The notes under the pieces were generated by a model. The model ran no database searches, had not been told where the DNA came from, and saw nothing but the letters and a program-made list of their open reading frames with translations. DNA of 64,000 bases from Patescibacteria group bacterium (GTDB taxonomy: Bacteria > Patescibacteriota > Patescibacteriia > Patescibacteriales > UBA12465): NCBI GenBank assembly GCA_049318005.1, contig JBMOHE010000002.1:13824-77823 (forward strand), in the 5' to 3' direction. The stretch's first letter is position 1; every line of letters starts with the position of its first letter. The position numbers and the translations under genes are program-made. Shown here piece after piece: positions 20,041-48,756 of this stretch.

Positions 20041-21267
20041 CTATTCTATTCTTAGGGCTTCAACCGGATCTAAATTAGCTGCCTGCTTAGCTGGTCTATA
20101 ACCAAATAACAGACCGCATAAAATTGAAAATAGTAAAGAAGCGCCAATTCCCTGCCAAGGGAAAATAAACTGCCAATTTAAATTAAAATATTTAGCCAGT
20201 AAGGTTAAAAGAAAGGAAAAAATAACTCCCAAGATAGTTCCTAGCAACCAGCCCCAGAAAGTAATTAATAATGATTCAATTAAAAACTGCCAGACAACAT
20301 CTTTTTTAGTTGCGCCCAGCGCTTTACGCAAACCAATCTCTGGAGTTCTCTCAACGACAGTAACATACATAATATTCATAATACCGACTCCTCCGACCAA
20401 CAAAGAAATTAAGACAATCGCTAGTAATAAATATGTAACGGCATTAGTAACCGTTCCCAGTGTGTTTAACATTTCTTCCATGGTCGAGACCCTGAAATCA
20501 TCTTTATCGGGGTTAGTGATATTATGGCGCTCGCGCAACAAACCTTTAATTTCTTCGGCCGTCTCGGGCGCTCGATTAACATCCCTAACTTGATGCATGA
20601 AATAAATTGCATAATCAATGCCCAAGATACTTTTATGGAGAGTATTTATAGGAACATAAACAATATTATCGAAATCAATGAATGCCGCTCCTCCTCCCTG
20701 AGCGCTCAAAACGCCAACGACTTTAAATTTCTTACTACCTAATTTAATTGATTTTCCTACCGCCTCCTGATTACCAAATAAATAATCTTTTAAAGAAGCC
20801 CCTAAAACGGCGACCATGGCCTGACTTTTGTCATCATCTTCACTGAAAAATTCCCCTGATGCTAATTTAGTTTTAGAATCTATCTGTGCATAAGGAGCGC
20901 TAGTTCCAAAAATAAATACTTTCTTACTCTGCGATTCATAACTAACCCTCTGCTGCGCCAATGAGGCGGCATAGCTCATTGAAACATTACTAATTCTATT
21001 AATCGCCGACATGTCATCCATTTTCAAAGAAGTAACTTCAACCACGCCATTAGGGCTATTACCTGGAGCCTTAGCCTCGGTCTGGATAACATTAGTTCCA
21101 TATGATTTAATCTCGCCTGAAACAAGATTGCTCAACATGCTCCCGGCTGAAAAAACAATAATAATCGCCGAAACTCCGATAACCACGCCTAAAACAGTTA
21201 AACTTGTTCTAAGAAGATTCAAGCGTAATGATCTGTAAGCTAATTGGAAGGCAATGATAATCCGCAT
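20041..21267 (-). CDS. ABC transporter permease, MacB/FtsX type (second copy)
   Basis: N-terminal TM, large extracytoplasmic domain, C-terminal FtsX block GIMNIMYVTVVERTPEIGLRKALGA. Confidence 0.9.
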   Translation of the reverse strand: MRIIIAFQLAYRSLRLNLLRTSLTVLGVVIGVSAIIIVFSAGSMLSNLVSGEIKSYGTNVIQTEAKAPGNSPNGVVEVTSLKMDDMSAINRISNVSMSYAASLAQQRVSYESQSKKVFIFGTSAPYAQIDSKTKLASGEFFSEDDDKSQAMVAVLGASLKDYLFGNQEAVGKSIKLGSKKFKVVGVLSAQGGGAAFIDFDNIVYVPINTLHKSILGIDYAIYFMHQVRDVNRAPETAEEIKGLLRERHNITNPDKDDFRVSTMEEMLNTLGTVTNAVTYLLLAIVLISLLVGGVGIMNIMYVTVVERTPEIGLRKALGATKKDVVWQFLIESLLITFWGWLLGTILGVIFSFLLTLLAKYFNLNWQFIFPWQGIGASLLFSILCGLLFGYRPAKQAANLDPVEALRIE

Positions 21268-21269
21268 AA

Positions 21270-22517
21270 TTATTCGTAACGTAAGGCTTCTATAGGACTT
21301 AAGCGACTAGCTCGTTTAGCGGGATAATAACCAAAAATAACTCCAATTAAAGTCGAAAGGCCGATAGCAACTATAATAGAAGATAAAGATACAACAAAAT
21401 CCCAACGATAGCCCAAGGAGCGTACAACAACGGCCGTTAAATAAGATATAAGTGATCCCATAAATAGACCAATTAAGCCGCCAAACAAAGTCAAAATGAT
21501 TGCTTCAAATAGAAATTGATTTAATACCTGGCGATTTGTTGCGCCAAGTGCTTTGCGCAAACCAATTTCCCTGGTTCTCTCAGTAACACTAACCAGCATT
21601 ATATTCATAATTCCAATACCACCAACAATTAAAGATAGACCAGCCATGGCTGCTAGAAAATAACGAATTGAATCAGTTATGGTTGTAATTAGAGCGAGCG
21701 CATCACGAAAACTTCGAACTGAAAAATCATCGTCAGCTGGATTATCTATTCCATGACGCTCACGTAATGTCTGACTAACATTTTCCATTACCTCGTCAAT
21801 ATTAACAGCGTTATCAACCTTAACTCTAACAGCACTTAAATAATTAATTCCGGCAATTTCTTTTTGTGCGAATAAAAGAGGCGCGAAAACTAAATTATCA
21901 TAACTTTGAAAACCAACCTGCCCTCTTTTTTTCATTACTCCTATTACCGTAGCGGTTTGATTTTTAATTTTTATTTTTTGACCTACCGGATCAGTTCCAC
22001 CAAATAATTCAGTGGCGGCCGTACTTCCTAAAACCGCTAAACGTAAATCGGATGAAAGTTCTTCTTTAGAAAAAAAGCGACCTGACTCAACTTCTCCACC
22101 GTCAACTGCCAAATAATCACCATATATTCCCTGCAAATTTGCGTCATAACTTTGATCACGCCAATAAACAGTTGCGCTAGATTGATAATAAGCAAAAACG
22201 GCCGAAACATGCAAAACATTTTTAGGATCTCTAAAGGCCTCAGCATCGCTAAGTTTTAAACTTGTAACCTTAACACCAAAAACAGACGCTGGTGGTCCTT
22301 TCTCATCAGACTGACCTGGCAAAACCCCTACCAAATCGCTACCAAAACCCGATAACTGACCAAGAATTAATGATTTGGCACCAGCTCCCAGCGACATGAT
22401 CAGAACAACGGCACCAACGCCAATAATAATTCCCAGCATAGTTAAAAAACTCCTGGTCTTATTACCAAGCAAAGAAATAAAAACTATTTTGAGTAATTGG
22501 CGAAAATTTTCTAACAT
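21270..22517 (-). CDS. ABC transporter permease, MacB/FtsX type (first copy)
   Basis: Same architecture; GIMNIMLVSVTERTREIGLRKALGA. Confidence 0.9.
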   Translation of the reverse strand: MLENFRQLLKIVFISLLGNKTRSFLTMLGIIIGVGAVVLIMSLGAGAKSLILGQLSGFGSDLVGVLPGQSDEKGPPASVFGVKVTSLKLSDAEAFRDPKNVLHVSAVFAYYQSSATVYWRDQSYDANLQGIYGDYLAVDGGEVESGRFFSKEELSSDLRLAVLGSTAATELFGGTDPVGQKIKIKNQTATVIGVMKKRGQVGFQSYDNLVFAPLLFAQKEIAGINYLSAVRVKVDNAVNIDEVMENVSQTLRERHGIDNPADDDFSVRSFRDALALITTITDSIRYFLAAMAGLSLIVGGIGIMNIMLVSVTERTREIGLRKALGATNRQVLNQFLFEAIILTLFGGLIGLFMGSLISYLTAVVVRSLGYRWDFVVSLSSIIVAIGLSTLIGVIFGYYPAKRASRLSPIEALRYE

Positions 22518-22519
22518 AA

Positions 22520-23242
22520 TTATTTCAAAGTTTCACCTTCAGTAGCAAAGCGTCTATGCTTGACTATCTCATCGCCAACTATTTTTCCGTCATGAACTCG
22601 AATAATGCGCTTAGCATGTTCAGCGGTATATGTTTCATGGGTAACCAAAATAATTGTTTTACCCTGTGCATTTAAATCTTGTAGAATTTTCATTACCTGA
22701 ATACCGGATTTTGAATCAAGGTTACCGGTTGGTTCATCAGCAAAAATAACCGAAGGATTATTAACCAAAGCTCTGGCAATTGCAACTCTCTGCTTTTCCC
22801 CGCCAGAGATTTGATTAGTATGATAGTTAAGTCGATGATCAAGGCCAACGCTTTTTAAGACATCGGCCGCTCTATCGTCCATTTTTAATTTATTATCGGA
22901 ATAAATTAAAGGCAACTTAACATTATCTAAAACACTAGTACGTGCTAAAAGATTAAAGGCTTGAAAGACAAAGCCAATTTCCTTGTTTCTTAAATGTGCT
23001 AATTCTTCATCATCTAATTTACCAATATCACGACCAGCAAAAAAATAATGACCTAAAGTCGGACGTTCTAGTAAACCAAGAATATGCATTAAGGTTGACT
23101 TGCCAGAACCAGATGGACCCATAATAGAAACGAATTCCCCTTCTTTAATTTCAAAATTTACATCCTTTAAAACTTCAGTCGTCAAATCTCCAGTAATATA
23201 CGTTTTTGTGAGATTGCTAATTTCAATCAAAGCTTTTGTCAT
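22520..23242 (-). CDS. ABC transporter ATP-binding protein (MacB/LolD-like)
   Basis: Walker [10 protein letters not shown], signature [15 protein letters not shown], Walker B IFADEPT. Confidence 0.95.
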
Positions 23243-23249
23243 AATTTTA

Positions 23250-25193
23250 TTATTTAGCTGGAGCTGGGGTAGTTGTTTTAATAAAAGTTATCACATTGTC
23301 ACCTTCTTTTAGACCACTTAAAATCTCAACCATGCCCTCATCTCCTCGTAAGCCGGTTTTAACAGCAACTTCCTGAACCAAGCCGTCCACCAAAAGACGG
23401 ACGATAGTTTGCGAGTCTTTTTCAATTAACGATCGGGCTGGAACCTGCAAAGCCTGATCTCTCTTCTCTGTCATAATAACAACATTAGTCGTCATACCGG
23501 ATTTAAGGCTTAAACCCTTAGAATCAAGGAGACTAATTATTTCATTGATATTTGTAAAATCAATTTTAACTTTATAATAAACAACGTCTTGAATTACGGT
23601 TTGAGCGGGCTCGATAAAACTTACCTGTCCCTTCAAAATTAAATCTCCCGGGAAAGCATCAAGAGTTAAATCAACTTGATTGCCAATCTTAATTTTACTG
23701 ATGTTTGATTCAGCAATATCAACTTCAACATTAAAACTATTATTCACCAAAATTGAAACCATTGATTTAGCACTTGGAGAAAACTGTTCACCAACTTCAA
23801 AATTAACCTGGTTAACAACGCCATCTAAAGGAGAAACTAATAAAGAATCTTTAATTTGTTGATTAATACCATCAAGAGTTGCTTGAGCTTGATTAACTTG
23901 AGCTTGGGCGACAGAAATATCTTGGGCACGAGCCGGAGCAACGGTATTAATATATTGTGCCTGAGAAACCGCAAGACTATTATTAGCACTATTTAGGCGA
24001 GCCTGAGCAGATGAAATCTGCTGATCACCACTTAGTTTAACGCTACTCAAAGCGTTACGAGCGGCTAGTTTAGCATTATCAAGATTAACTTGGGCCTGTC
24101 CTAAATTATCTTCAGCGCTAGCAACACTTGTTTGCTTATTTAAAACTGCATTATGAAAATTCTGAATAGACACTTCTAAGGCGGAGCTAGCTCCATTAAC
24201 CTGGCTAACTTGAGAGCTTATAATAGTTTTATAGGAATCTAATTTAGTTTGAGAGAATGAAGAGCTAACTATACTTGATTCAAGCATAGCGTAAGCATAA
24301 TCAAGCGCATCATCAGTAGCAATTAAAAGCTTCTTAACAGCTTCTCCGGCCAGGCTAATAGAATTTTCATCGTTCTGTTGCCTAGCTTTAGTCGCTAACG
24401 ATTCGGCGGATGGTATTAAAGCGAGGGCCGCCAATCTAGCGTCTTTGGCTTGGTTTAGAGAGGATGAATTTTTGGCGCCTAATACATTCGTCGCACTATC
24501 ATCAGTTAAAAGCGTATTTATATTATCAAGCGCAATTTTCGCGTTTAATATCTTGTCGTTGATAGTTAAAACAGCTGAACTCCTAGTATTATCAATAGTT
24601 TTTTGACCATTTTTCTGTGCATTATCAAGGGCTGTTTTGGCTTGCGCAACTGATTGTTCTTGAGGGGTAATAGTTGATGAGCTAGTCGATTCTAAATCAG
24701 CTGAAGTTTTTTCAGCTTGGCGAATATTTTCAGCGACAGTTTTTTTGATTTTTTCTAAATCAGTTTTGGCTGAAGCAATTGTAGCTTGAGCCTGAGCAAG
24801 ACTTGAACGACTAATGTTAACTGTTTCGCTACTTGCACCAGCCATAAGCTTTGAAAGAGTCGCCTTGGCCATGCTAAGGCCAGCCTCAGCTTCTGTTTTT
24901 CTAACCTGCAAAGAGCTATCATCGAGTGAAGCCAAAACTTTATCTTTAGTTACTTTATCGCCAACCTTTACGTTTACAGTTTTAATTCGTCCTGAAGACA
25001 AAAAATTCAAGGCAATTTCCTTAATAGGCATAACCGTTCCAGATTCATTGACGGTTTGAAGCAATGGGGCTGATTTCACTAAAATAGTTGAATAATCAAC
25101 TTTTTTATTCTTACTTGAAAGCCACCACCAAATACCAATAATAGCCAAAATTACTATAACTAAAATCCAAAGCCAACGCTTATTTTTTTTCAT
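23250..25193 (-). CDS. HlyD/MacA-family periplasmic adaptor with greatly extended coiled-coil (start moved to M22, MKKNKRWLW)
   Basis: TM anchor, lipoyl-like halves GRIKTVNVKVGDKVTKDKVLASLD and SPLDGVVNQVNFEVGEQF separated by roughly 370 aa of Ala/Ser/Gln-rich helix. Confidence 0.85.
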   Translation of the reverse strand: MKKNKRWLWILVIVILAIIGIWWWLSSKNKKVDYSTILVKSAPLLQTVNESGTVMPIKEIALNFLSSGRIKTVNVKVGDKVTKDKVLASLDDSSLQVRKTEAEAGLSMAKATLSKLMAGASSETVNISRSSLAQAQATIASAKTDLEKIKKTVAENIRQAEKTSADLESTSSSTITPQEQSVAQAKTALDNAQKNGQKTIDNTRSSAVLTINDKILNAKIALDNINTLLTDDSATNVLGAKNSSSLNQAKDARLAALALIPSAESLATKARQQNDENSISLAGEAVKKLLIATDDALDYAYAMLESSIVSSSFSQTKLDSYKTIISSQVSQVNGASSALEVSIQNFHNAVLNKQTSVASAEDNLGQAQVNLDNAKLAARNALSSVKLSGDQQISSAQARLNSANNSLAVSQAQYINTVAPARAQDISVAQAQVNQAQATLDGINQQIKDSLLVSPLDGVVNQVNFEVGEQFSPSAKSMVSILVNNSFNVEVDIAESNISKIKIGNQVDLTLDAFPGDLILKGQVSFIEPAQTVIQDVVYYKVKIDFTNINEIISLLDSKGLSLKSGMTTNVVIMTEKRDQALQVPARSLIEKDSQTIVRLLVDGLVQEVAVKTGLRGDEGMVEILSGLKEGDNVITFIKTTTPAPAK

Positions 25194-25392
25194 AAAATCA
25201 AATATATATTCATTTATATTATAAATACTTACGATAATAAAATACCATAAATACACAAAAATAACAAAACAATCGACAAAAAATAGCTAGTACATATGTC
25301 TGAATATATACTCTTGACAAATAGTGATTAATTATGCTAAGTTAATCTAGCAACTTAACAATTAATATTACAAACAAAAAAATGCAACTGCG

Positions 25393-25892: not shown

Positions 25893-25925
25893 AGAGTCTC
25901 CTTTCACAGGAGGCTCTATTTTTTT
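25893..25925 (+). terminator. Intrinsic terminator after the greA-like gene
   Basis: AGAGTCTCC-TTTCACA-GGAGGCTCT then ATTTTTTT. Confidence 0.7.
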
Positions 25926-25984
25926 ATAGAAACATATACCAAGCTATGGTATAATTAATATATAAATTTATTAAACATTAAAAT

Positions 25985-26878
25985 ATGTCGATTGAAAAAA
26001 TTACAACTGCAGTTATCCCGGCTGGAGGCTGGGGCACACGCTTTATGCCGGCCACTAAAAGTATTCCTAAAGAAATGTTCCCTCTTGGCAGCAAGCCAAT
26101 TATATTACATGTTGTTGAGGAATTAGTCGCTTCGGGAATAACTAATATCATTTTTGTCGTCTCACACCACAAACAGTCTATTGAAAGTTTTTTTGCTCCC
26201 AACGAAATACTCGAAAATTATATATCAAAGATTAGCGACAAAAACAAAGGTGACGAATTAAAATCTATTCCAAATCTAGCAACCTTTGATTTTGTTTATA
26301 CTCATGAACCGATGGGAAATGGTGGCGCTCTAAGCTCAGTTAGACACTTAGTAAAAGACAAGCCATTTGTCTTAATTTGGTCTGACGAAATTATCTTATC
26401 GAAAACCAAACCACGGGTCGCGCAATGCCTTGATGCTTATTATAAATACGGTAAACCAGTTATCTCCGCTATTAAAATTGAAGACCCATTTAAACGCTCA
26501 AAATATGGGATGGCCGAATTAAATGATTTAAAAGGAGAAACAGAGATAAAAGAAATAAAAAACATTATCGAAAAACCAGCCTTTGGAAAGGCGCCGTCTA
26601 TGTATGCAACTCATGGCGCCTACGTTTTAACTCCAGCTATTTTTGATGCCCTAGATAAGACTAAGGCCGGAGCCAATGGCGAAATTTGGCTAACGGACAT
26701 AATAAATATTATGAGGAAAGAAACCGGACTACTAGCAAAAATAATTAGTGATGGCCATTACTTAGATTGTGGCGATCCTATGCAATACTTATTGTCACAA
26801 GTCGATTACTTTATTAATTACTCAGAATTTGCTGACGAAGCACTTATGGCTCTGGCCCAACCAGTTTGTCATCGTTAA
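25985..26878 (+). CDS. galU: UTP--glucose-1-phosphate uridylyltransferase
   Basis: AVIPAGGWGTRFMPATKSIPKEMFPL N-terminal signature; extended -10 TGgTATAAT at 25947-25955. Confidence 0.9.
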   Translation: MSIEKITTAVIPAGGWGTRFMPATKSIPKEMFPLGSKPIILHVVEELVASGITNIIFVVSHHKQSIESFFAPNEILENYISKISDKNKGDELKSIPNLATFDFVYTHEPMGNGGALSSVRHLVKDKPFVLIWSDEIILSKTKPRVAQCLDAYYKYGKPVISAIKIEDPFKRSKYGMAELNDLKGETEIKEIKNIIEKPAFGKAPSMYATHGAYVLTPAIFDALDKTKAGANGEIWLTDIINIMRKETGLLAKIISDGHYLDCGDPMQYLLSQVDYFINYSEFADEALMALAQPVCHR

Positions 26879-26885
26879 TTTTCTT

Positions 26886-28403
26886 ATGCAAGGTATAAAA
26901 AGAAAATTAATAACCTATATATCATATCTATCTTTAGTAAGTCTATTTTTTTATTTCATTTTGAGAGTCTATATTTATTATAGTCAGAGTTATGGATTTA
27001 TAAATTCTCTTTTTGGCGCGCTATTACTAGCCGCTGAAACGCATTCCGTTCTTCAGTCTTTAGGATTTATCTCAAATATAATTCGCTTAAGAAAAACTGG
27101 GGTTAACTATCAACGACACGTTAAACTTGATTTAAAAAATCTACCAGAAGTTACTATTCTTGTTCCAGCAAGAAATGAGCCACTAAAAATTCTCGAGGAA
27201 ACTTTTATTTGTTTGAGGTCTTTGAACTACGACGCTAAAAAAATTATGTTTCTAGACGGATCAGATAAGGAATACCTAAAAGAAAATAAAAAATTAGCTG
27301 ATAAATATGGATTGGAGCATTTTGTTCCACGCGTCCCTTCTAAAAATAAAGCAGAAATAGTGAATCTTGCTCTAAAAAATATAGATACTAAATATCTTTC
27401 AATTTTTGACGCCGACCAAAATCCGATGCCAAATTTTTTACTTGAAACGGTTGCTGTCGCGGAATATTCAGAAAATATATCATTTGTTCAAACACCACAA
27501 CTCTACACAAATATCAGCGTCGGTCCGATTGCCAAAGGAGCTGCTCTGCAGCAGTCGATCTTTTTTGAAAATATTTGCGAAGGTAAAGGCACTAGCAACG
27601 CCATGTTCTGCTGTGGCACAAATTTTCTTATGCGAACTAAAGCTCTTAAAGAAGTTGGTGGTTTTGATGAAAATTCAGTAACTGAAGATTTTGCAACCTC
27701 CGTTAAAATACATGCACTTGGCTATCGATCTGTTTACTATAATCATGTTCGCGTTTTTGGTATGGCGCCGGAGACTCTCTCAGCTTACTTTAAACAACAA
27801 TATCGATGGTCAGCGGGAACTGTCGGTGTTGTTAGAAAATTAAGCTCTGAAGTCTATCACGGTCGAATTAAACTAAATTTACGCCAAGTTTGGGAGTATT
27901 TTTTATCGGCGACTTACTATTTTACTGGCTGGTCTTTCTTTCTATTAATTATGTGTCCGGCCCTTTATTTACTATTTAATATTCCATCCTACTTCGCCAA
28001 CCCTATCTTTTATCTAATCACTTTCGTTCCCTACTATATTTTAACAGCCACGGTTTTTTATGCGACCATGAAAGGAAGAAATTATTCGATGAAAGATGTT
28101 TTTACAGGAAATATTATGAGCTCATTAAGCTTTCCGATTTTAATGCAATCAACCCTATCAGGCATATTAAATAAAAAAATTTCATTTCAAATAACTGATA
28201 AAGGTAAAAGTGATATTCTTCCTGTCTGGAAATTATGGCCCTGGATAATAGTTATCCTATTTAATCTGCTTGCTATCATAAAAGGTTTTTCCAGATTGCA
28301 AGAAAACTACTACGCGATTGGGATTAATATGTTTTGGTGCACTTATCACGTTCTTCTTCTGTCTAACATTTTTAAATTAAATAAAATTCCTAAATATAAA
28401 TAA
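26886..28403 (+). CDS. bcsA: Processive GT2 beta-glycan synthase, BcsA/cellulose-synthase-like, no PilZ domain (start moved to ATG 26886)
   Basis: ILVPARNE, DADQNP, QTPQ, TEDFATS (TED), QQYRWSAG (QxxRW), gating-loop-like FQITDK (FxVTxK); only two TM helices follow. Confidence 0.75.
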   Translation: MQGIKRKLITYISYLSLVSLFFYFILRVYIYYSQSYGFINSLFGALLLAAETHSVLQSLGFISNIIRLRKTGVNYQRHVKLDLKNLPEVTILVPARNEPLKILEETFICLRSLNYDAKKIMFLDGSDKEYLKENKKLADKYGLEHFVPRVPSKNKAEIVNLALKNIDTKYLSIFDADQNPMPNFLLETVAVAEYSENISFVQTPQLYTNISVGPIAKGAALQQSIFFENICEGKGTSNAMFCCGTNFLMRTKALKEVGGFDENSVTEDFATSVKIHALGYRSVYYNHVRVFGMAPETLSAYFKQQYRWSAGTVGVVRKLSSEVYHGRIKLNLRQVWEYFLSATYYFTGWSFFLLIMCPALYLLFNIPSYFANPIFYLITFVPYYILTATVFYATMKGRNYSMKDVFTGNIMSSLSFPILMQSTLSGILNKKISFQITDKGKSDILPVWKLWPWIIVILFNLLAIIKGFSRLQENYYAIGINMFWCTYHVLLLSNIFKLNKIPKYK

Positions 28404-28404
28404 T

Positions 28405-28635
28405 ATGACTAGTAAAAAGCAAGCCGTCATAGAAAAAATTAACGAAGCCATGATAAAAGAAGAGCTGGCCATTCCCTTATACGTTAGCCACATTCAGCAA
28501 AGTCTATTTTGGTCAGGTCTAAGCAAGAAAAAACAAGAAACTATTATTATAGGTTTAAAAACATTAGCGGCTGAATCTAAAATGCATGTTACATACTTAA
28601 ATAAAGTTTTGGATATTTATAAAAAATCAAAATAA
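28405..28635 (+). CDS. Small helical protein (76 aa), hypothetical
   Basis: Starts 2 nt after the synthase stop; all-helical, no TM. Confidence 0.5.
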   Translation: MTSKKQAVIEKINEAMIKEELAIPLYVSHIQQSLFWSGLSKKKQETIIIGLKTLAAESKMHVTYLNKVLDIYKKSK

Positions 28636-28639
28636 ATAT

Positions 28640-28828
28640 ATGTTTAATAAAAAAGATTACTTACAATACTTTAATGAACTATACGAGGTTGAGACAGTTA
28701 TGAAAGAAGAGATGAATGATTTACTTAAAATAATTGAACTCGAGGATGCCAGAAAGATTATCAAACAAATAAAAAAAGACGAAATCAGACATGCAAAAAT
28801 TGTCCAATCCCTAATTAAACTTATTTAA
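28640..28828 (+). CDS. Small helical protein (62 aa), hypothetical
   Basis: Tightly follows the previous ORF; DEIRHAKIV contains an ExxH-type motif; with its neighbour it could be a split four-helix bundle (speculative). Confidence 0.45.
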   Translation: MFNKKDYLQYFNELYEVETVMKEEMNDLLKIIELEDARKIIKQIKKDEIRHAKIVQSLIKLI

Positions 28829-28837
28829 TTTCAAAAG

Positions 28838-30409
28838 CTACTTAAAGAGATAACTAGAAGATTTAACCTGGAGAGAGTCACTGAGACGATCCCAGGTTTT
28901 ATTATTATTAAGCTTATAAAAAAGACCGCCGTTGTTTTGCAAGATTGTTCCTGTTTGGTTTTCGGAAACCAGGTCTGTTTTTGGAAGGTTATTTAATAAG
29001 CTTGCCTGATTTAAATTAGCCGAATCAAGAGGATTGATTAATAATAATCTTTTCAACAACTCAGACAAAGCTAAATAACTCACTCTTTCATTAATATAGC
29101 TAGTTTTGATCTCACTACTTTCATTAAAACCAGGTCCAAATATTTTAATTGCAACTGGAACTTGAGTAATTGAGGGTAGTGGAATTTCACGAACCGTAGC
29201 TGTTTGAACCGCTGAGCCGCGAAGAGCAGCGCCATGTTCGCCAATTACAATAACAATTGTCCGCCTATTACTCTTTTTTATGTCTGAAAAAAAACTATCC
29301 AGGTCACTAGTTAAATTATTCAAAGCTAGATTATATTGATCAACACTCGGCAAGTATTCTCCGTCAACATAATAACCGCCGGTATGAAGAGTGATACTAT
29401 TATAAAACAAGGCTGATTTTTTATTATTATCTTTTTCTCTAGTTACAGACCAGAGATTTAAAGCTTCTTTATCGCTATAAACCGGAGTATTATCAAAGCT
29501 ATTTTCCTTAGCCTTAAGTTGTGAATTATCTAAAGGCGTGTCAGCATGACCATACTTTAAAATTGCATCTCTAAAACCAGAGTAATAACCATCGTGATTA
29601 ATACTAGTATAAGTCGAATAGCCTATATTTCTAAGGCTATCAATTAAATAGCATTCTTTATTGGCCTCAGCAAATAAGTTTCCCTCGGAAACCTGACCAC
29701 AGGTAGAGCGCAAAAGGCGCAAGACGGCTGGATTACTATAGGTCGCCGCGGAATTAAAATTAGTAAATACAAAATCAAACTGTTTAAAGAAAGGCTTCAT
29801 GTCTAAGCTTGCATAATCAAAATCATCCCAAGAGAACGAGCATAACTGAAGAATAACTATATCATATTCACTTTCGGGATTATTTATTAAACTAATATTC
29901 TTTTTCGCCTCGTCAGAATAGAAATTACCTAATAAATTATCTTTAAGCGACTTTACTTCCGTAAAACCAACCACAAAGAAAAAAATTATAAAAAATATTG
30001 ATGAATATTTTCTTAACCTAGTAAATGAAATTAGATAAGAGAATAAAAGCAGGCTTAAAAAAAAGGCGATTAGCTTAAAATTAAAAATAGATAAAATAAA
30101 ATGCCAAACAAACGCCGAACTTGGCTGAAGAGAATTAACGGTTAAAAAATTCCAAAGAACACTAAAAGATGGCAAATATGACTCGTGCCATAACAGGACA
30201 ATCGCTAGAATAATTGCGACGCTATTTTTAATTAATTCCCAGAGTCTTATTTTCTTCAATCTTTCCGAAATTGGAAAAAATATAAAAATAATTAAAAAAA
30301 GATTAAAGAAAGCATGGGCGGCAATTATTCCTAAAAGATGCAAAGAGAAAACTAATAAAAAATATAAGCTCCAGAACATTAACTTAAAACCACTAACTTT
30401 ATAATTCAT
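28838..30409 (-). CDS. bcsG: BcsG-like membrane phosphoethanolamine transferase (alkaline-phosphatase superfamily)
   Basis: N-terminal polytopic TM region; blocks LQLCSFSWDD, FTNFNSAATYSNPAVLRLLRSTCGQ, FYNSITLHTGG, IVIGEHGAAL, REIPLPSITQVPVAIKIFGP match remembered enterobacterial BcsG blocks. Confidence 0.75.
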   Translation of the reverse strand: MNYKVSGFKLMFWSLYFLLVFSLHLLGIIAAHAFFNLFLIIFIFFPISERLKKIRLWELIKNSVAIILAIVLLWHESYLPSFSVLWNFLTVNSLQPSSAFVWHFILSIFNFKLIAFFLSLLLFSYLISFTRLRKYSSIFFIIFFFVVGFTEVKSLKDNLLGNFYSDEAKKNISLINNPESEYDIVILQLCSFSWDDFDYASLDMKPFFKQFDFVFTNFNSAATYSNPAVLRLLRSTCGQVSEGNLFAEANKECYLIDSLRNIGYSTYTSINHDGYYSGFRDAILKYGHADTPLDNSQLKAKENSFDNTPVYSDKEALNLWSVTREKDNNKKSALFYNSITLHTGGYYVDGEYLPSVDQYNLALNNLTSDLDSFFSDIKKSNRRTIVIVIGEHGAALRGSAVQTATVREIPLPSITQVPVAIKIFGPGFNESSEIKTSYINERVSYLALSELLKRLLLINPLDSANLNQASLLNNLPKTDLVSENQTGTILQNNGGLFYKLNNNKTWDRLSDSLQVKSSSYLFK

Positions 30410-30502: not shown

Positions 30503-30898
30503 CTAAGAATTGTCTAATAAAAGATTAACCGCTTGAAGTAAATGATCGCTTTCCCTATTCTTTAATAAAAAAAATATCTTTGGATCATTTTTATAAATTA
30601 CTTCTTCCCTGCCAAAACCTTCTTTTCTAAACCATAAAATTACCGGAAGGCTAAATTCCTTGAGCTTCTCTTCGTAAAGCATTAAACCAGTCTTCGTGTC
30701 GACTAATACCTCCTTGCTAGAAAAGTAAGAAGTGGGACCAATTTCAAGAACAACTAAATCATAGCAATTCTCCCTGTTCAAGCGAAGTAAGGCGCTGCTA
30801 GGATAGGTAAATTCGTCAACTAAGTACTTATCTTTTAATTTTTCAATATATGAAACATCTCCGATAAGCCTACTTGCAATCAATAAAATCCTTTTCAT
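30503..30898 (-). CDS. Stand-alone degenerate receiver-like (pseudo-receiver) protein
   Basis: 131 aa with CheY-like beta-alpha periodicity: RILLIAS (no DD), YDLVVLEI (E at the phospho-Asp position), PVILWF, FFLLKN. Confidence 0.35.
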   Translation of the reverse strand: MKRILLIASRLIGDVSYIEKLKDKYLVDEFTYPSSALLRLNRENCYDLVVLEIGPTSYFSSKEVLVDTKTGLMLYEEKLKEFSLPVILWFRKEGFGREEVIYKNDPKIFFLLKNRESDHLLQAVNLLLDNS

Positions 30899-42405: not shown

Positions 42406-45400
42406 TTATTTTAAATCACCCACATCTATTTTTCTAATATTTTCATTACTTATTCCAAGAGATAACTGTCTCATTATTTGATAAGCAGCCTCTCCGTTAG
42501 CGAGATAATATCTGTAACCATCAGTTGGGTTAATATACCAGGCTTCCCCGTTATTTTCTACTTGAAGAACTATTCTGCCTTTTAATCTATTAGTTAGAGC
42601 GGTTGAATAATTAGTATTCTTGATATAATCACTTGGTAAGACAGAAGTAGGAGCAACTGGTATTTTGTTTAAATCGGCATTAGTTATTCCTAACCCAAAC
42701 TTACGTAGAGCTTGATAGGCAGCTGGTCCATCAGCTAGATAATATCTTGATAAAGAGACCTTGTCTAAATACCAGGCTTGGCCTTTAGTTTCTACTTGGA
42801 GTAATATGCGGCCAGCTAGTTTAGTTGAAAGCTTCTTATCTATTATCTTAGATAGTAGTGATCTTTCATATTGATAGATGCTGGAAATATAATTATTAGC
42901 CTGACCATCTTTGGTTGGCTCATTGACTTCTGGGGTAGTAGGGGATCCGCAACTTCTTTCAGTGAGAGCTCTTTGCTCAGCTGTTAGTGAGCAGAAGTTT
43001 GGAGATTTAGCTAGAACGTTTCTAAATTGTTTACCGCCGATACAAGTGGTTTGCCAAGCGTCGTAAGTTACTTCAGAGCAGCTAGAGATAACTAGAGGAG
43101 AATATGAGCTGCCACTTGCAGGGCTAGCTACTGGATTATTACCAGTATAGACAACGTATTCGGAAAAGTGCTTAGTCCAGACAATCAAATCGCTGCCAAC
43201 ATTAATTTTACAATCGCCATTAGCTATTAAGGCGTCACCGTCTAACTGGGAATCACCGGAGCAAGTATTACTAATTGGCCTAAACTCTCCCATATTGTTA
43301 ATAAAGCCAACATTATTACCAGCCTGACCGAAGAATGTCACTCTAACTGCTTTATTTAGAGTTAAGGTGGCGTTAGGGTCGCCGATTTCGAAAATGGAGA
43401 TAATGTCACTAGTTTTAAGAGATATGGACCCCGCTGCTTTTTGCTGAGGCAAACTAAATACCTCCGACCAAGCTAAAGTATTAGCAGTCATAGTTGTTCC
43501 ACTAAATACTTCCAAGCGAATATCTGAGGAGATATTAGCAATTAATTTCTCAGCGAAAGTGACTGTTTTACTACCACTAACAGTTTCAACGACAGAAGAA
43601 AGGTCAAGAGATATTTTATTAACACTATCAACACTACTAATTGTTGTTTGGGCATGCTTCATGTCTGGTGAAAATGCGATAGCTTGTGAATTACTAGTAT
43701 TTATGTATATAGGCTGAACGTTTATTAAAGTAACTGATTTAGCAAAATAGTTAGAGACTAAACCGCTACTATCTTTTGACCAGGCGTAAAGATTGTTTCC
43801 AAACGATGAGGTATAAATATTATTTCCAGATACAGCAATCAGGTCAGAGCCTCTATTAGAAGCAGCGACCAAAGATCCACTAAGGGTAGAATTAAAACTA
43901 GTCCAATTAGCGCCACCATCTAGAGACTGGTAACCATTACTTCCAGACAAAGCTATAATGTGTTTATCATCCTCTCCTGAGATGATAAAGGAATTAATAG
44001 ATGTGTCTTGAATCTTAAACTCTGTCCAAGTATTACCATCGTCTTCTGAAAAATACTTACTATCAACTCCGTCATTATTAACCGTCGCTACTAATTTAGT
44101 TCCGTAAGATGAGTATTTCAAACCGCCGCTAATTAGTGTTCCCGATGGACGAGTCTTTTGCAAATAGTTAACACCACCATCTGTTGACACCCAGATAAAA
44201 TTACCAACTTCAGAATTACCAGCCGCAATTTTTTCACCATTTCTAGTCATTGTGATTGCTAGCCAGTCACTAACAGCCACTGATGAAGAAGCCCAGGTGG
44301 CTCCACTATCACTGGACATATAGATGTCGGTAGCGTTACCAGTAACAACAATCTTTGAGCCATCAGAAGATGAATCTATTACTCTGAAATTTCCAGTAGT
44401 AGCACTAGACCAAGTAGAGCCGCCATTAATAGATTTCGAAACACCGCTTGAACCAGCTAGATATAATTTTAGGCCATCAGCGGAGGCGCCAAGATCATAC
44501 CAAGTACCAGCCTCTGTGCTTACAGAACTCCATATTTGACCATAGTCAGAGGAAGTTGAGATGGTGCTGTTATTTATTAGAGCAAAAATCTTCTTACCAT
44601 CAGCTGCGCTAATTATTTTCTGAATAGCGTTAGAAGTAGTGGTTGATAAAGTCCAGGTAGCTGGATGACTTGGCTTTAGACTACTAAAGGCGTGGCTGGT
44701 TGGCGCCTGAGATCGCCAGCGAGAATTATTAGATAACGGCTTTTGATCTGTTTCGGTTAACAGATAGGCGGCAGCATTAGTTACTGGACTGAGGATTAGA
44801 GAAACAACTGAAGAGCTAGACACAAGAGGAATAGACAAAGAATCGGAATTGGAAGTAACTAAAATTTTCCATTGGCCATAAGCTGTTTCTTCGTTATTAG
44901 TAGCATAGGCACGGTAGTAATAGACAGTACCAGAAGTTAATCCCGACAAATCATATGAATAGTTACTATCAGAGAATGGACTACTTTCTGTAGTAGTGGC
45001 ATAGTTATTAATACTTGCCCCCCAGTTGAATCCTCTAACCGTTGGATCAAAAACATCTACATATTCAATGTTACCATTAATGGTTGCTGAGCTTGATTCT
45101 AGATTAGAAACTTCATCTGTTATTATCTTTTCAGATTTAAACTTGATTATGAAGATATCCATATTTCCATCTGAAACAAGATTAGAAACACCATATCCTG
45201 TGTCAAAATCGACGGTACCAGGAAAATAACCAGTGACATAGACGTTACTCAAAGAATCTACGGTAACTGATTCTCCATAATCATTACTAGTTGCACCAAT
45301 ACTTTTAGCCCAGGCGAATGCTCCATCAGCATTTAATTTAGAGATGAAGATATCTACATTGCCAGCTGAGACAAGATTATAAACACCAGACCCTGGGTCA

Positions 45401-48400
45401 AAATCAACAGTACTAGAAAAAGAACCAGTTGTATAGACATTGCCTGAGAAGTCTACAGTAATTGAATGCCCAGTATCATAACCAGTTCCACCCATCTTTT
45501 TTGCCCAAACAAAATTACCATTACTATCTAATTTTGAGATGAAAATATCATCACTAGCTGAAGTGAGATTATATACCTCCTCTCCTGGATCAAAATCACC
45601 GACGCCACGAAAATAACCAGTAGTATAAATATTACCTAAAGAGTCTACAGTGATTGAGTTTCCTCGATCATCACTAGTTCCGCCCATCTTTTTTGCCCAA
45701 ACAAAATTACCATTACTATCTAATTTTGAGATGAAAATATCATCACTAGCTGAAGTTAGATTATATACCTCCTCTCCTGGATCAAAATCACCCGTACCAG
45801 AAAAATAACCGGCGGTATAGACGTTACCCAAAGAATCTACAGTGATTGAATATCCATGATCATTACTAGTTGAACCAATCTTTTTTGCCCAAACAAAATC
45901 ACCATTATTATCTAACTTTGAAATAAAGATGTCAGCACTACCAGTTGAAACAAGATTGTAAGCGCCAACTCCGGGATCAAAATCAGCGATATAATCAAAA
46001 TAACCAGTGGTATAGATATTGCCCAAAGAATCTATAGTGATTGATTTTCCTGCCTGACCAGAAATTCCGCCAATTTGTTTAACCCAAATAAAATCACCAT
46101 TACTATCTAGTTTTGAAATAAAAATATCACTTTCACCAGATGAAACAAGATTATGTGTCCCCTCTCCTGGATCAAAATCAACGGTACCTCGGAAAGAACC
46201 AGTAGTATAAATATTACCAAAAGAATCTACAGTAATCGAATATCCATGATCATCACTAGTTGAACCCATCTTTTTTGCCCAGGCAAATGTTCCATCGGCG
46301 TTTAATTTAGAGATGAAAATATCTTCATTGCCAGCTGAGACAAGATTATACACGCCAGATCCTGGGTTAAAATCAACAGTATCAGAAAAACTACCAGTAA
46401 TATAAACATTATCCAAAGAATCTACAGTTATTAAGCGTCCATTATCACCACCATTTCCGCCAATCTTTTTTGCCCAAACAAAATTTTGTTCATAATTAGG
46501 GGACTTGGTTTTGAATACCGTCCAATCCCCATAAACAGTGTCTTCATTATTACTAGTAGCGTAAGCCCGATAATAATATATCGTATCAATTTCTAGATCA
46601 GTTAATTCATAAGAAAATGTTCCCGCTCCAAATGTACCATTCTCTGTAGTTGTGGCAAAAGTGCTAGTACTTATTCCCCAATTAAAACCCCTAGTCGTTA
46701 AGACAATTGAGCCTATTCCTAAAATATCACCCCTAAGAATGGCTGTATGTTCATCAATACTGTTTAAAATTAGCGCTTCTACGGAAAAGCTATTAAAAGA
46801 TTTCCACTCGCTATAACTGGTTCCCATATTATCAGTAGCATAGGCCCGGTAATAATATATAGTACCAGGAACAAGATTTGAGAGATTATAAGAATAAGTT
46901 CCTTCGCTGAAAGTGCCATTCTCTGTAGTTGTGGCAAAAGTGCTAGTACTTGTTCCCCAATTAAATCCTCTGACATTCGGATTACTTTCACCAATAGATA
47001 ATATATCGCCATTTAAGATAGCTGAATCTCTATTTAAGCCACCGACAATTGAGTTAAGTTCTAAAACTCTGTTAGTAGTAAACGAAGTCCACTCGCTATA
47101 ACTGGTTCCCATATTATCAGTAGCATAGGCCCGGTAATAATATATAGTACCAGGAACAAGATTTGAGAGATTATAAGAATAAGTTCCTTCGCTGAAAGTG
47201 CCATTCTCTGTAGTTGTGGCAAAAGTGCTAGTACTTGTTCCCCAATTAAATCCTCTGACATTCGGATTACTTTCACCAATAGATAATATGTCGCCATTTA
47301 AGATAGCTGATGATGTGCTAATATTATTAACAGTGGAAGAAACCATAGCTAAATCTATTTTCCGTATTTTTAAAATATAAGCATCAGATAGACCGGCTGA
47401 GACAAGATTGGAAACACCGACCCCTGGGTCAAAATCAACCGTGCCAGAAAAATAACCAGTGGTATAGAGGTTACCCAAAGAATCTACAGTGATTGAATAT
47501 CCATGATCATTATTATTTACACCAATATTCTTAGACCAAATAAAGTTACCACTGCTATCTAATTTAGAGATAAAGACATCGTTGCCGCCATTTGAAGTCA
47601 GATTATATACTCCACTTCCTGGATCAAAATCACCTGTACCAGAAAAATAACCAGTGGCATAGATATTACCCAAAGAATCTACAGTGACTGAGTTTCCTTG
47701 ATTGCTATTAGTTGAAACTATCTTTTTTGCCCAAACAAAAACGCCATTACTGTCTAACTTGAGAACAAAAGTGCCACCGTTCATCAGACTAGAAACACCA
47801 GTTCCTGGGTCAAAATCAACCGTGCCAGAAAAATAACCAGTGGTATAGACATTTCCCGAGGAGTCTAAAACAATTGAAGCCCCTCCATCTACTACAAAAG
47901 ATTTGCCAATTTTCTTATACCAAAGAGAATTCCCATTAATATCTAATTTGGAAATAAATATATCAGATCCATTCTCGCCAGTTATATAGGTATTTCCAGA
48001 TGGATCTACGGTGATTGATTTTCCTTGATTATAATGACCAGCGGTAGATCCGCCTATCTTTTTGGCCCAGGCAAAAGTACCATTAGCATATAGCTTAACG
48101 ATAAAATCAGAGGAGTCATTCGTCGAAGTTAGGTTAAAAACACCAGCTCCCGGATCAAAATCAACGGTGCCTTGAAAAAAGCCAGTGGCATAGATATTAC
48201 CCAAAGAATCTACAGTGACTGAGTTTCCTCGTCCTCCATAAATTCCGCCGCCCATATTCTTAGCCCAAGCGAATGTTCCATCGGTATTTAATTTTGAAAT
48301 GAAAATGGAATCGGCGCCACCAGAAACAAGATTAGAAACACCAGCTCCTGGGTCAAAATCAACGGTGCCATAAAATACACCAGTTGTATAGACATTACCC

Positions 48401-48756
48401 GAGGAATCTAAAACAATTGAATGCCCAGCATCATAACTAGTTCCGCCCATCTTTTTTGCCCAAACAAAATTACCATTACTATCTAATTTTGAAATAAATA
48501 TGTCATAATTACCAGCTGAAACAAGATTAGAAACACCAGCTCCTGGGTCAAAATCAACGGTGCCATAAAATACACCAGTTGTATAGACATTACCCAATGA
48601 GTCTAAAATGATTGAATATCCAATATCATCGCCAGTTCCACCAATCTTTTTAGCCCAATCAACAGCAACATCTTCCGCTAACGCTGGCCTAGAAGAGAAA
48701 AAAATTAGAGCGAAAACTAAAATAAAAAAGCATTTTTTGAAAGTTTTTAAATTCAT
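42406..48756 (-). CDS. Giant secreted surface protein (2116 aa): two SBBP-type beta-propeller repeat arrays, four FN3/Ig-like modules, Asp-box (BNR-like) region, Cys module, two C-terminal ~60-aa repeats
   Basis: Signal peptide ...SSRPALA/EDV; many repeats of the type G.S.D.G.SI.VDS.GN.Y.TG.F.GT.DFDPG....L.S.G..D.FISKL; SxDxGxTW-like boxes (SSDYGQIW, SDSGATW, EDDGNTW, LDGGANW). Confidence 0.85.
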   Translation of the reverse strand: MNLKTFKKCFFILVFALIFFSSRPALAEDVAVDWAKKIGGTGDDIGYSIILDSLGNVYTTGVFYGTVDFDPGAGVSNLVSAGNYDIFISKLDSNGNFVWAKKMGGTSYDAGHSIVLDSSGNVYTTGVFYGTVDFDPGAGVSNLVSGGADSIFISKLNTDGTFAWAKNMGGGIYGGRGNSVTVDSLGNIYATGFFQGTVDFDPGAGVFNLTSTNDSSDFIVKLYANGTFAWAKKIGGSTAGHYNQGKSITVDPSGNTYITGENGSDIFISKLDINGNSLWYKKIGKSFVVDGGASIVLDSSGNVYTTGYFSGTVDFDPGTGVSSLMNGGTFVLKLDSNGVFVWAKKIVSTNSNQGNSVTVDSLGNIYATGYFSGTGDFDPGSGVYNLTSNGGNDVFISKLDSSGNFIWSKNIGVNNNDHGYSITVDSLGNLYTTGYFSGTVDFDPGVGVSNLVSAGLSDAYILKIRKIDLAMVSSTVNNISTSSAILNGDILSIGESNPNVRGFNWGTSTSTFATTTENGTFSEGTYSYNLSNLVPGTIYYYRAYATDNMGTSYSEWTSFTTNRVLELNSIVGGLNRDSAILNGDILSIGESNPNVRGFNWGTSTSTFATTTENGTFSEGTYSYNLSNLVPGTIYYYRAYATDNMGTSYSEWKSFNSFSVEALILNSIDEHTAILRGDILGIGSIVLTTRGFNWGISTSTFATTTENGTFGAGTFSYELTDLEIDTIYYYRAYATSNNEDTVYGDWTVFKTKSPNYEQNFVWAKKIGGNGGDNGRLITVDSLDNVYITGSFSDTVDFNPGSGVYNLVSAGNEDIFISKLNADGTFAWAKKMGSTSDDHGYSITVDSFGNIYTTGSFRGTVDFDPGEGTHNLVSSGESDIFISKLDSNGDFIWVKQIGGISGQAGKSITIDSLGNIYTTGYFDYIADFDPGVGAYNLVSTGSADIFISKLDNNGDFVWAKKIGSTSNDHGYSITVDSLGNVYTAGYFSGTGDFDPGEEVYNLTSASDDIFISKLDSNGNFVWAKKMGGTSDDRGNSITVDSLGNIYTTGYFRGVGDFDPGEEVYNLTSASDDIFISKLDSNGNFVWAKKMGGTGYDTGHSITVDFSGNVYTTGSFSSTVDFDPGSGVYNLVSAGNVDIFISKLNADGAFAWAKSIGATSNDYGESVTVDSLSNVYVTGYFPGTVDFDTGYGVSNLVSDGNMDIFIIKFKSEKIITDEVSNLESSSATINGNIEYVDVFDPTVRGFNWGASINNYATTTESSPFSDSNYSYDLSGLTSGTVYYYRAYATNNEETAYGQWKILVTSNSDSLSIPLVSSSSVVSLILSPVTNAAAYLLTETDQKPLSNNSRWRSQAPTSHAFSSLKPSHPATWTLSTTTSNAIQKIISAADGKKIFALINNSTISTSSDYGQIWSSVSTEAGTWYDLGASADGLKLYLAGSSGVSKSINGGSTWSSATTGNFRVIDSSSDGSKIVVTGNATDIYMSSDSGATWASSSVAVSDWLAITMTRNGEKIAAGNSEVGNFIWVSTDGGVNYLQKTRPSGTLISGGLKYSSYGTKLVATVNNDGVDSKYFSEDDGNTWTEFKIQDTSINSFIISGEDDKHIIALSGSNGYQSLDGGANWTSFNSTLSGSLVAASNRGSDLIAVSGNNIYTSSFGNNLYAWSKDSSGLVSNYFAKSVTLINVQPIYINTSNSQAIAFSPDMKHAQTTISSVDSVNKISLDLSSVVETVSGSKTVTFAEKLIANISSDIRLEVFSGTTMTANTLAWSEVFSLPQQKAAGSISLKTSDIISIFEIGDPNATLTLNKAVRVTFFGQAGNNVGFINNMGEFRPISNTCSGDSQLDGDALIANGDCKINVGSDLIVWTKHFSEYVVYTGNNPVASPASGSSYSPLVISSCSEVTYDAWQTTCIGGKQFRNVLAKSPNFCSLTAEQRALTERSCGSPTTPEVNEPTKDGQANNYISSIYQYERSLLSKIIDKKLSTKLAGRILLQVETKGQAWYLDKVSLSRYYLADGPAAYQALRKFGLGITNADLNKIPVAPTSVLPSDYIKNTNYSTALTNRLKGRIVLQVENNGEAWYINPTDGYRYYLANGEAAYQIMRQLSLGISNENIRKIDVGDLK
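46804..47310 (-). repeat. Intragenic near-perfect tandem duplication, 285-bp period (two FN3-like modules)
   Basis: 46804-47025 and 47089-47310 are nearly identical (one mismatch noticed: ATATATCGCC vs ATATGTCGCC); a diverged third unit lies at about 46505-46790. Confidence 0.85.

Follow-up and report, generated by a model that had tools for sequence, protein, structure and literature searches.

A Patescibacteria gene cassette pairing a predicted BcsG phosphoethanolamine transferase with a BcsA-like synthase of a widespread GT2-sA-sB family

Phosphoethanolamine cellulose is known from the Enterobacteriaceae, in which making it takes a large machine of many subunits, and the question raised by the locus described here is what a gene for BcsG, the phosphoethanolamine transferase of that machine, is doing beside a BcsA-like synthase gene in one of the Patescibacteria. 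The locus lies at positions 25985-30409 of the stretch of DNA that was analysed (64 kb, called the window below; contig JBMOHE010000002.1), which originates from a Patescibacteria metagenome-assembled genome (MAG), and both a base composition of ~29-38% GC and the housekeeping genes elsewhere in the window are consistent with this origin. The original prediction, made from the letters of the sequence, was that galU, a glycosyltransferase family 2 (GT2) synthase lacking PilZ and a convergent bcsG form a stripped-down Bcs system for a modified beta-glucan which works independently of cyclic di-GMP (c-di-GMP). The open reading frame (ORF) list holds five predicted genes in this region, all at the coordinates originally given for them:

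25985-26878, + strand: galU-like gene, 297 aa
26886-28403, + strand: GT2 synthase gene, 505 aa, its ATG 8 nt past the galU stop
28405-28635, + strand: sA, 76 aa, soluble helical protein
28640-28828, + strand: sB, 62 aa, soluble helix-loop-helix protein
28838-30409, - strand: bcsG, 523 aa, convergent on sB with 9 nt between both stop codons

All of the gene identities that had been proposed were upheld by profile, residue and fold tests, and we hold them with high confidence. Judged by its predicted proteins and gene content, the cassette is a member of a separate and widespread synthase family, here called GT2-sA-sB, and not a cut-down proteobacterial Bcs system, with bcsG and galU being lineage-specific additions to that family. 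We lean towards reading the five genes as the Patescibacteria version of a pathway for a phosphoethanolamine-decorated surface beta-glucan; such a decorated beta-glucan is the most likely product, with moderate confidence, and our confidence in the role proposed below for sA and sB at the synthase is lower.

The BcsG-like transferase and the BcsA-like synthase

The exact products of the two largest genes already have NCBI entries, named "cellulose biosynthesis protein BcsG" and "glycosyltransferase family 2 protein" (505 aa, the ATG start agreeing with ours). The 523-aa protein scored 396.5 bits (E = 2.1e-118, cut-off 24.8) with the Pfam family CBP_BcsG (PF11658) compared to 24.9 bits with Sulfatase, scores pointing the opposite way from a generic lipoteichoic acid synthase or sulfatase, and all five sequence blocks on which its identification as BcsG had originally been based are present. 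It matches the E. coli BcsG of a cryo-EM complex (PDB 9b8v_B) with an E-value of 1e-73, and in this alignment C243, Y277, S278, C290 and C306 of the E. coli protein correspond to C190, Y224, S225, C237 and C253 of the window protein, and H396, E442, H443 and R458 to H342, E391, H392 and R407. In E. coli BcsG the zinc ligands are Cys243, Glu442 and His443 and the nucleophile is Ser278 (PMC8892547), while Cys290 and Cys306 form a structural disulfide and the BcsG-specific Tyr277 and Arg458 are proposed to contact the glucan (PMC8892547; PMC11379886). The predicted metal ligands (C190, E391, H392) and nucleophile (S225) are intact in the window protein, and all nine functional residues are invariant or at least 90% conserved in an alignment of 24 BcsG sequences spanning Patescibacteria, Elusimicrobia, Nitrospinae and Proteobacteria. 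Five hydrophobic segments, read by eye, lie within residues ~9-150 ahead of the catalytic domain, as in E. coli; this membrane domain has weak homology to the E. coli N-terminus and contains W13, Y16 and L72, which are invariant across the family. The window BcsG is, by these comparisons, a full-length phosphoethanolamine transferase with an extracytoplasmic alkaline-phosphatase-fold domain, its activity and acceptor being those predicted from its family.

Relatives of this BcsG in other lineages are found in ordinary bcsA(PilZ)-bcsB-GH8-bcsC clusters without bcsE and bcsF (three clusters: L086, L087 and L088; GH8, glycoside hydrolase family 8), and because it sits elsewhere in such bona fide clusters, the usual acceptor of BcsG is likely to be the BcsA product. 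A rough neighbour-joining tree places the Patescibacteria BcsG proteins in a single clade, whose neighbour is a BcsG encoded in an Elusimicrobia GT2-sA-sB cassette and which is separate from the proteobacterial clade.

The 505-aa synthase matched the Pfam families Glyco_trans_2_3, Glyco_tranf_2_3, Glycos_transf_2 and Cellulose_synt. The D,D,D,QxxRW set and the likeness to the BcsA gating loop that had been noticed originally are borne out by the translation, which contains DADQNP (DADQ at 175-178), TED (266-268), QQYRWSAG (QQYRW at 304-308) and the gating loop FQITDK (434-439), and it aligns with E. coli BcsA residues 229-685 and R. sphaeroides BcsA residues 95-508 with the catalytic motifs and FxVTxK in register. 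Residues D175, D177, T266-E267-D268, Q304-Q305, R307-W308, F434, T437 and K439 are among those invariant in its family. Pfam searches found no PilZ domain in it, as had been predicted; the E. coli BcsA alignment ends at residue 685, and the match to the NCBIfam CelA model spans positions 61-557 of 714, with the PilZ part outside. An AlphaFold2 model built on 17 family members (pLDDT 87.2, pTM 0.86) has two N-terminal transmembrane (TM) helices, a GT-A domain, interface helices and four further TM helices, after the last of which only 7 residues remain. The six TM helices correspond to TM3-TM8 of BcsA, and compared to BcsA the protein is without TM1-2, PilZ and the N-terminal domain of ~140 residues. 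The top Foldseek matches of the model in the PDB were E. coli and R. sphaeroides BcsA (TM-score 0.82-0.85, E-values of 1e-27 to 1e-25, the best being 2.8e-27 with a TM-score of 0.85), followed by plant CesA (~1e-13) and hyaluronan synthases (~1e-13, TM-score ~0.5), so that BcsA, and not a hyaluronan- or chitin-like synthase, is nearest both by sequence and by predicted fold.

The first gene of the cassette gave 93 bits with Pfam NTP_transferase and its top NCBIfam model was GalU (TIGR01099), in agreement with its original naming, at 225 bits, which is under the equivalog cut-off of 327 bits, with RmlA and GlmU far behind. Its product is presumed to be a GalU-like UTP--glucose-1-phosphate uridylyltransferase which would supply UDP-glucose. 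Domains of BcsB, BcsC, BcsE, BcsF, BcsQ and GH8 were absent from the scanned ORFs of the window (all those of at least 200 aa except 21270-22517, and some shorter, plus a precomputed Pfam list for the stretch in L085), which agrees with the original remark that the BcsB, C, E and F partners are not visible.

Distribution of the cassette and nature of the product

An alignment of the GT2 subfamily was scanned against 185,579 GTDB species genomes, of which 472 encode a relative, and the top 80 loci were retrieved. The titles of these records refer to Patescibacteria lineages, Elusimicrobiota, Omnitrophota, Planctomycetes, Fibrobacteres, Latescibacterota, Verrucomicrobia, Sumerlaeota, Desulfobulbales and Chlorobium, giving the GT2 family a span of at least eight phylum-level labels. 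Gene content was counted by local profile searches over 84 loci, which include the best matches of the 472-genome set (GH26, glycoside hydrolase family 26):

Patescibacteria-type, 22 loci: sA and sB in 20, galU in 19, BcsG in 7 (4 distinct), GH26-like in 0, PilZ in 0
Elusimicrobia, 14 loci: sA and sB in 13, galU in 0, BcsG in 5, GH26-like in 13, PilZ in 0
Other phyla, 49 loci: sA and sB in 42, galU in 0, BcsG in 0, GH26-like in 35, PilZ in 12, as a fusion to sB or directly behind it

The GT2 gene is followed by sA and sB in ~75 of the 84 loci, and most of the loci without them are cut by a contig end. The linkage was also seen from the other side, as a reverse scan seeded with a Patescibacteria-only sA alignment gave 16 metagenome contigs, 13 of them with upstream DNA, and GT2 was directly upstream of sA in 12 of these 13. 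The lone exception (L101:4971-5171) is an sA homologue at a contig end, after ribosomal protein genes (L10 and L7/L12 by eye), with no GT2. The two tiny helical ORFs, originally remarked on as standing where the Bcs partners are missing, are real and conserved, and they are the most constant partners of the synthase. The same GT2 subfamily is present in diderm Elusimicrobia, Omnitrophota and other phyla, with BcsG as an accessory, and the idea of a Bcs system stripped down in a reduced genome has to be given up.

Adjacency of BcsG to the cassette was found in at least four distinct Patescibacteria loci and five Elusimicrobia loci, in three gene orders, and also in further metagenome contigs. 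A Falkowbacteria genome has BcsG-GT2-small-small-GalU on one strand, another Patescibacteria MAG has a convergent layout identical to that of the window, and in an Elusimicrobia genome BcsG is convergent with GT2-small-small and has a GH26 gene beside it. Of the 22 Patescibacteria-type loci, 19 have galU adjoining GT2-sA-sB, an arrangement absent from the 63 other loci. Five loci with the GT2-sA-sB-galU order, their GT2 being 48-66% identical to that of the window (L008, L012, L014, L015, L020), are titled "uncultured Gammaproteobacteria" or "Pseudomonadales", and these taxonomic labels look unreliable. In Elusimicrobia cassettes the stretch between sB and bcsG encodes a protein of 266-269 aa (L004:11600-12400, - strand; L026:10928-11737, + strand), which has no Pfam match, begins with a signal-peptide-like segment and is a candidate outer-membrane or periplasmic component.

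The product is likely to be a beta-glucan because galU is conserved in the Patescibacteria operons, because the synthase has a BcsA-like fold and gating loop and because BcsG is otherwise found with cellulose synthases. The modified beta-glucan of the original prediction therefore stands as likely, but its cellulose-like nature is not established, since the hydrolase of the sister cassettes is a lichenase-like GH26 and not GH8. This GH26-like secreted protein is encoded between GT2 and sA in cassettes from outside the Patescibacteria (L026:9485-10474, L046:9500-10432 and 46 other loci), and it matched the GH26 module of C. thermocellum Endoglucanase H, which we take to be the lichenase CtLic26A, with an E-value of 1e-51 compared to 1e-14 for mannanases. 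A mannan product, which a GH26 might suggest, was rejected on this difference of ~37 orders of magnitude.

The polymer may instead be another beta-glucan, such as the mixed-linkage (1,3;1,4)-beta-glucan made by RiGT2 of Romboutsia ilealis and BgsA of Sinorhizobium meliloti, which BcsG would then decorate; we regard this as possible but doubtful. BcsA-like enzymes with the same motifs do make mixed-linkage glucan in Romboutsia (PMC10374906) and Sinorhizobium (PMC5567048), and structure models cannot separate a cellulose from a mixed-linkage product (PMC10374906; PMC5567048). The hydrolase of the sister cassettes, nearest to the Endoglucanase H module and unlike the GH8 BcsZ of cellulose operons, points the same way, as does a family-specific FCCGT where E. 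coli BcsA has FFCGS. A tblastn search of plasmids with the GT2 returned matches that were all 25-29% identical, to BcsA and to generic glycosyltransferases, a level at which cellulose and other glucan synthases are inseparable. Against mixed linkage, all other contexts examined have BcsG together with canonical cellulose synthases, cellulose synthases are the nearest matches of the GT2 in sequence and fold, and the Patescibacteria cassettes themselves are without GH26.

The small proteins, PilZ domains and a possible mechanism

Neither sA nor sB belongs to a Pfam or NCBIfam family, their matches to Pfam Rubrerythrin being under the cut-off. In 49-sequence alignments, made for each of the two proteins, E19, H29 and H61 of sA are invariant and Y26, F35, L54 and S58 nearly so, while in a local alignment of 80 sequences D6, Y7, Y10, E18, E48 and H51 of sB are kept in 84-95% of members, with E18 and the dimetal-type motif E48-x-x-H51 each conserved in 84%. 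Comparison of the two profiles with hhalign (probability 87.7%, E = 3.4e-6) pairs E19 of sA with E18 of sB and S58-x-x-H61 of sA with E48-x-x-H51 of sB, and on this evidence sA and sB are taken to be distant paralogues. Against the PDB the sB profile matched Due Ferri DF1 (E = 7.4e-9), EncB (2.8e-5) and the Thermotoga ferritin-like diiron protein TM1526 (7.3e-5), with EncC, bacterioferritins and symerythrin among its further matches, and the best match of the sA profile was EncC (7s8t, E = 0.008), with the E, Y-x-x-H and E-x-x-H positions in register. An AlphaFold2 model of sB (pLDDT 78.7) is a hairpin of helix 4-31, a loop and helix 35-61. The two proteins thus resemble half-ferritin helical hairpins of the EncFtn or Due Ferri type, with putative metal binding. 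In EncFtn and DF1 the dimetal site of such E...ExxH hairpins is completed only when two of them pair into a four-helix bundle, and because two diverged paralogues are encoded back to back here, a heterodimeric sA/sB four-helix bundle is suggested. In relatives the sA and sB genes often overlap by ~10 nt.

Homologues of sA are scarce, with only 51 relatives at E <= 0.001 in an exhaustive search of 1.84 billion representative proteins. A word-index search with sB gave only 8 close relatives, too few to survey domain fusions. A 2253-aa repetitive protein from the sA search (P0265) was dropped as its Pfam matches were uninformative.

The strongest argument for placing sA and sB on the synthase comes from PilZ, the domain that frees the gating loop in BcsA. 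Ten loci, most of them with Omnitrophota in their titles (L038, L042, L043, L050, L062, L063, L064, L066, L076 and L083), encode an sB-PilZ fusion of ~160-175 aa in which PilZ is the C-terminal half and carries the canonical c-di-GMP-binding RxxxR and N-x-S-x-x-G motifs (the fusion at L064:10649-11176 scored 28.6 bits on PF07238), and in L063 a stand-alone PilZ (685-978) comes right after a second sA-sB pair. Some Omnitrophota GT2 variants of ~610 aa (L045:7995-9827, L040, L049, L060, L074, L084 and others) have a beta-rich C-terminal extension of ~100 aa, without matches in Pfam or to the sB-PilZ profile. It may be a degenerate PilZ, and two GT2/sA/sB sets are present in some of the genomes with these variants.

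PilZ was found in none of the 22 Patescibacteria-type cassettes, and GGDEF and HD-GYP motifs, PilZ and GH26 are all absent from the 64-kb window. This is compatible with c-di-GMP independence of the Patescibacteria cassettes, but 64 kb is not proof of it. The c-di-GMP-independent route of the original prediction is accordingly not shown, as relatives carry PilZ on sB and BgsA is a BcsA-like synthase which binds c-di-GMP without PilZ (PMC5567048).

Could sA and sB be an independent ferritin-like system for iron or oxidative stress, which merely shares an operon with the synthase? Their closest analogues (EncFtn, EncB/C, bacterioferritin, DF1) are iron-handling proteins, and L101 has an sA away from any GT2, but under at least eight phylum-level labels the pair goes with a single GT2 subfamily, sA has only the 51 relatives counted above, and the fusion of sB to PilZ, the module classically used to activate synthases, indicates a function at the synthase. 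We therefore think such an independent system improbable. For the reading in which the pair serves the synthase, it is conceivable, though speculative, that a dimetal sA/sB heterodimer senses iron, oxygen or redox state and switches the PilZ-less synthase on or off. If true, this would be a second-messenger-independent control of synthase-dependent exopolysaccharides, conserved in hundreds of uncultivated species from the Candidate Phyla Radiation (CPR) to the Omnitrophota, to which c-di-GMP sensing would have been added in some lineages via PilZ fused to sB.

Taken together, the pathway may run as follows. GalU, on the strength of its family and of operon conservation, would make UDP-glucose, and the GT2, on that of its fold and catalytic motifs, would polymerise the sugar and export the chain through its own six-helix channel without BcsB. 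In the cytosol sA and sB would form a heterodimeric half-ferritin-type four-helix bundle, probably with one or two metal ions, which would dock on the synthase as an obligatory regulatory or activating subunit and fill the niche of the fused PilZ of BcsA; near-universal gene linkage, translationally coupled spacing and the Omnitrophota sB-PilZ fusion are the reasons for giving them this role. BcsG, with its catalytic domain outside the single membrane, would then move phosphoethanolamine from phosphatidylethanolamine to the glucose C6-OH of the emerging chain.

In E. coli a BcsG trimer is recruited by the N-terminal domain of BcsA, ~140 residues in length (PMC11379886). That BcsG acts on some other acceptor (a glycolipid, a teichoic-acid-like polymer or a surface protein), its adjacency to the synthase being mechanistically meaningless, is very unlikely: the GT2 is without this recruiting domain, most cassettes of the family have no BcsG and the superfamily relatives EptA, EptC and LtaS use different acceptors, but the adjacency recurs in the Patescibacteria and Elusimicrobia loci and gene orders listed above, and the BcsG-specific Y277 and R458, the proposed glucan contacts, are conserved.

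Several points weigh against a decorated beta-glucan made in this way. The window BcsG scored 381.2 bits on NCBIfam TIGR03368, narrowly under the equivalog cut-off of 410.2, and the GT2 shares only 21-29% identity with characterised BcsA and reached 203.6 bits on TIGR03030 (CelA; cut-off 699.1) and 158 on PRK11498 (cut-off 992); because it is so far under the CelA equivalog cut-off it is named BcsA-like here, and not BcsA. The coupling between synthase and BcsG is unexplained, since the GT2 is without the BcsG-recruiting N-terminal domain, and as BcsG is found in only 12 of the 84 loci (distinct loci counted) the polymer does not need it. For the small proteins, the top Foldseek matches of the sB model were DF1, EncC and EncFtn, yet with non-significant E-values of at least 0.6, and sA has Ser at the position of the ExxH glutamate so that a canonical diiron site is not guaranteed. 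The presence of the phosphatidylethanolamine donor in this organism is assumed.

The annotations of BcsG and GT2 in GenBank, and BcsG and BcsA as well-known families, are known already. In the searched literature no report was found of BcsG with Patescibacteria or Elusimicrobia, nor of BcsA with the CPR. Four things appear to be undescribed in that literature: the occurrence of BcsG in Patescibacteria and Elusimicrobia; the pairing of this BcsG with a synthase without BcsB, PilZ and a BcsG-recruiting domain; the widespread GT2-sA-sB family with its ferritin-like mini-subunits; and the supply of PilZ in trans, on the sB subunit. An intact BcsG by a minimal synthase in single-membrane, ultra-small Patescibacteria suggests that phosphoethanolamine modification is older and more portable than thought, and four or five genes without BcsB, C, E and F are a tractable minimal system which could serve modified-glucan engineering. 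GT2-sA-sB is a widespread class of synthase-dependent polysaccharide systems, apparently regulated via ferritin-like mini-proteins and, in some phyla, PilZ in trans, and its regulation bears on the gating of processive synthases generally. Bacteria of the CPR are thought to live attached to host cells, and the polymer of this cassette is a candidate for an adhesive on their surface.

Three transcription signals were matched by consensus around the cassette:

25893-25917: terminator-like hairpin, upstream of the promoter-like site
25927-25955, + strand: promoter-like site between the hairpin and galU (TAGAAA, 17 nt, TG-TATAAT, an extended -10; consensus scan)
30494-30471, - strand: terminator-like site upstream of bcsG

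The layout fits two convergent units, galU-GT2-sA-sB and bcsG, by these consensus matches only. The site at 25927-25955 is a probable start of the galU-GT2-sA-sB transcript, although the number of promoter-like sites in the region is not above shuffled expectation and the evidence for it is weak. Scans for tRNA and Rfam families gave nothing relevant to the cassette.

Elsewhere in the window four further features were seen:

20041-25256, - strand: a MacB/FtsX permease pair together with an ABC ATPase and a YknX-like periplasmic adaptor of 668 aa, directly upstream of the cassette; an efflux-type system in a presumed single-membrane organism
30503-30898, - strand: 131-aa ORF just before the bcsG start codon, on the far side of bcsG, with no Pfam or NCBIfam match; by eye a degenerate receiver (CheY-like) domain with Glu at the phospho-acceptor Asp position, not conserved beside bcsG in relatives
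42406-48756, - strand: 2116-aa ORF for what is probably a giant surface protein, which has SBBP beta-propeller repeats as well as fn3 / purple-acid-phosphatase-N-like domains
50063-50293, - strand: complete group I intron (Rfam RF00028, 90 bits, E = 1e-21) for which no host tRNA or rRNA could be recognised in the window; its 5' end is overlapped by an ORF of 119 aa (50215-50574, - strand) that has an HNH-endonuclease-like Cys/His pattern

Comparison with known systems

The closest known system is the type II Bcs of E. coli and Salmonella, which makes phosphoethanolamine cellulose by BcsA-BcsB with BcsE, F and G, and which shares with the window a BcsA-type GT2 (D, DxD, TED, QxxRW, FxVTxK) beside a full-length BcsG with the same zinc site, nucleophile, disulfide and glucan-facing residues. 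The window differs in having only BcsG and the BcsA-like protein of the bcsEFG and bcsRQABZC set, BcsB, C, E, F, Q, R and Z all being absent, in a synthase without PilZ and without the BcsA N-terminal domain, in its single membrane, and in the two ferritin-like mini-proteins and galU of its operon. Canonical BcsA has eight TM helices, including the TM1-2 which pair with BcsB, and a bcsB gene, whereas the model of the window GT2 has six, and no BcsB domain was found in the scanned ORFs of the window. The clusters L086, L087 and L088 resemble the window in having BcsG without BcsE and BcsF, which shows that these two are not universal partners of BcsG, but they keep a PilZ-bearing BcsA, BcsB, GH8 and BcsC, none of which the window has.

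The CslA-GlxA system of Streptomyces is also a PilZ-less, BcsB-less BcsA-like synthase in a monoderm, dependent on an unrelated metalloprotein partner. It is mentioned in a review (PMC8892547). Compared by description only, it differs from the window in that GlxA is a large extracellular copper oxidase and not a cytosolic mini-ferritin, and in having no known BcsG.

RiGT2, a (1,3;1,4)-beta-glucan synthase, and BgsA are, according to the parts of the two reports drawn on here, BcsA-like GT2 proteins without a clustered BcsB, as in the window (PMC10374906; PMC5567048). The same parts describe RiGT2 as being without the N-terminal TM helix of BcsA and in a monoderm host (PMC10374906), and BgsA as without PilZ but with a C-terminal c-di-GMP-binding domain (PMC5567048), whereas the window GT2 ends 7 residues past its last TM helix; they mention no BcsG and no small ferritin-like partner for either enzyme (PMC10374906; PMC5567048).

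The relatives of the small proteins, EncFtn, EncB/EncC and DF1, are like sA and sB helix-loop-helix proteins of ~50-140 residues. E18 and E48 of sB stand 30 residues apart, presumably the same spacing as in EncFtn, and EncFtn presumably also has a counterpart of E19/Y26 (i+7) in sA. Compared to EncFtn and DF1, sA has Ser for the ExxH glutamate and an extra invariant His29. EncFtn, EncB and EncC are linked to encapsulin, whereas sA and sB, with their putative metal binding, are linked to a polysaccharide synthase, and they are unlike EncFtn and DF1 in being a pair of diverged paralogues from adjacent genes, an arrangement that implies a heterodimer.

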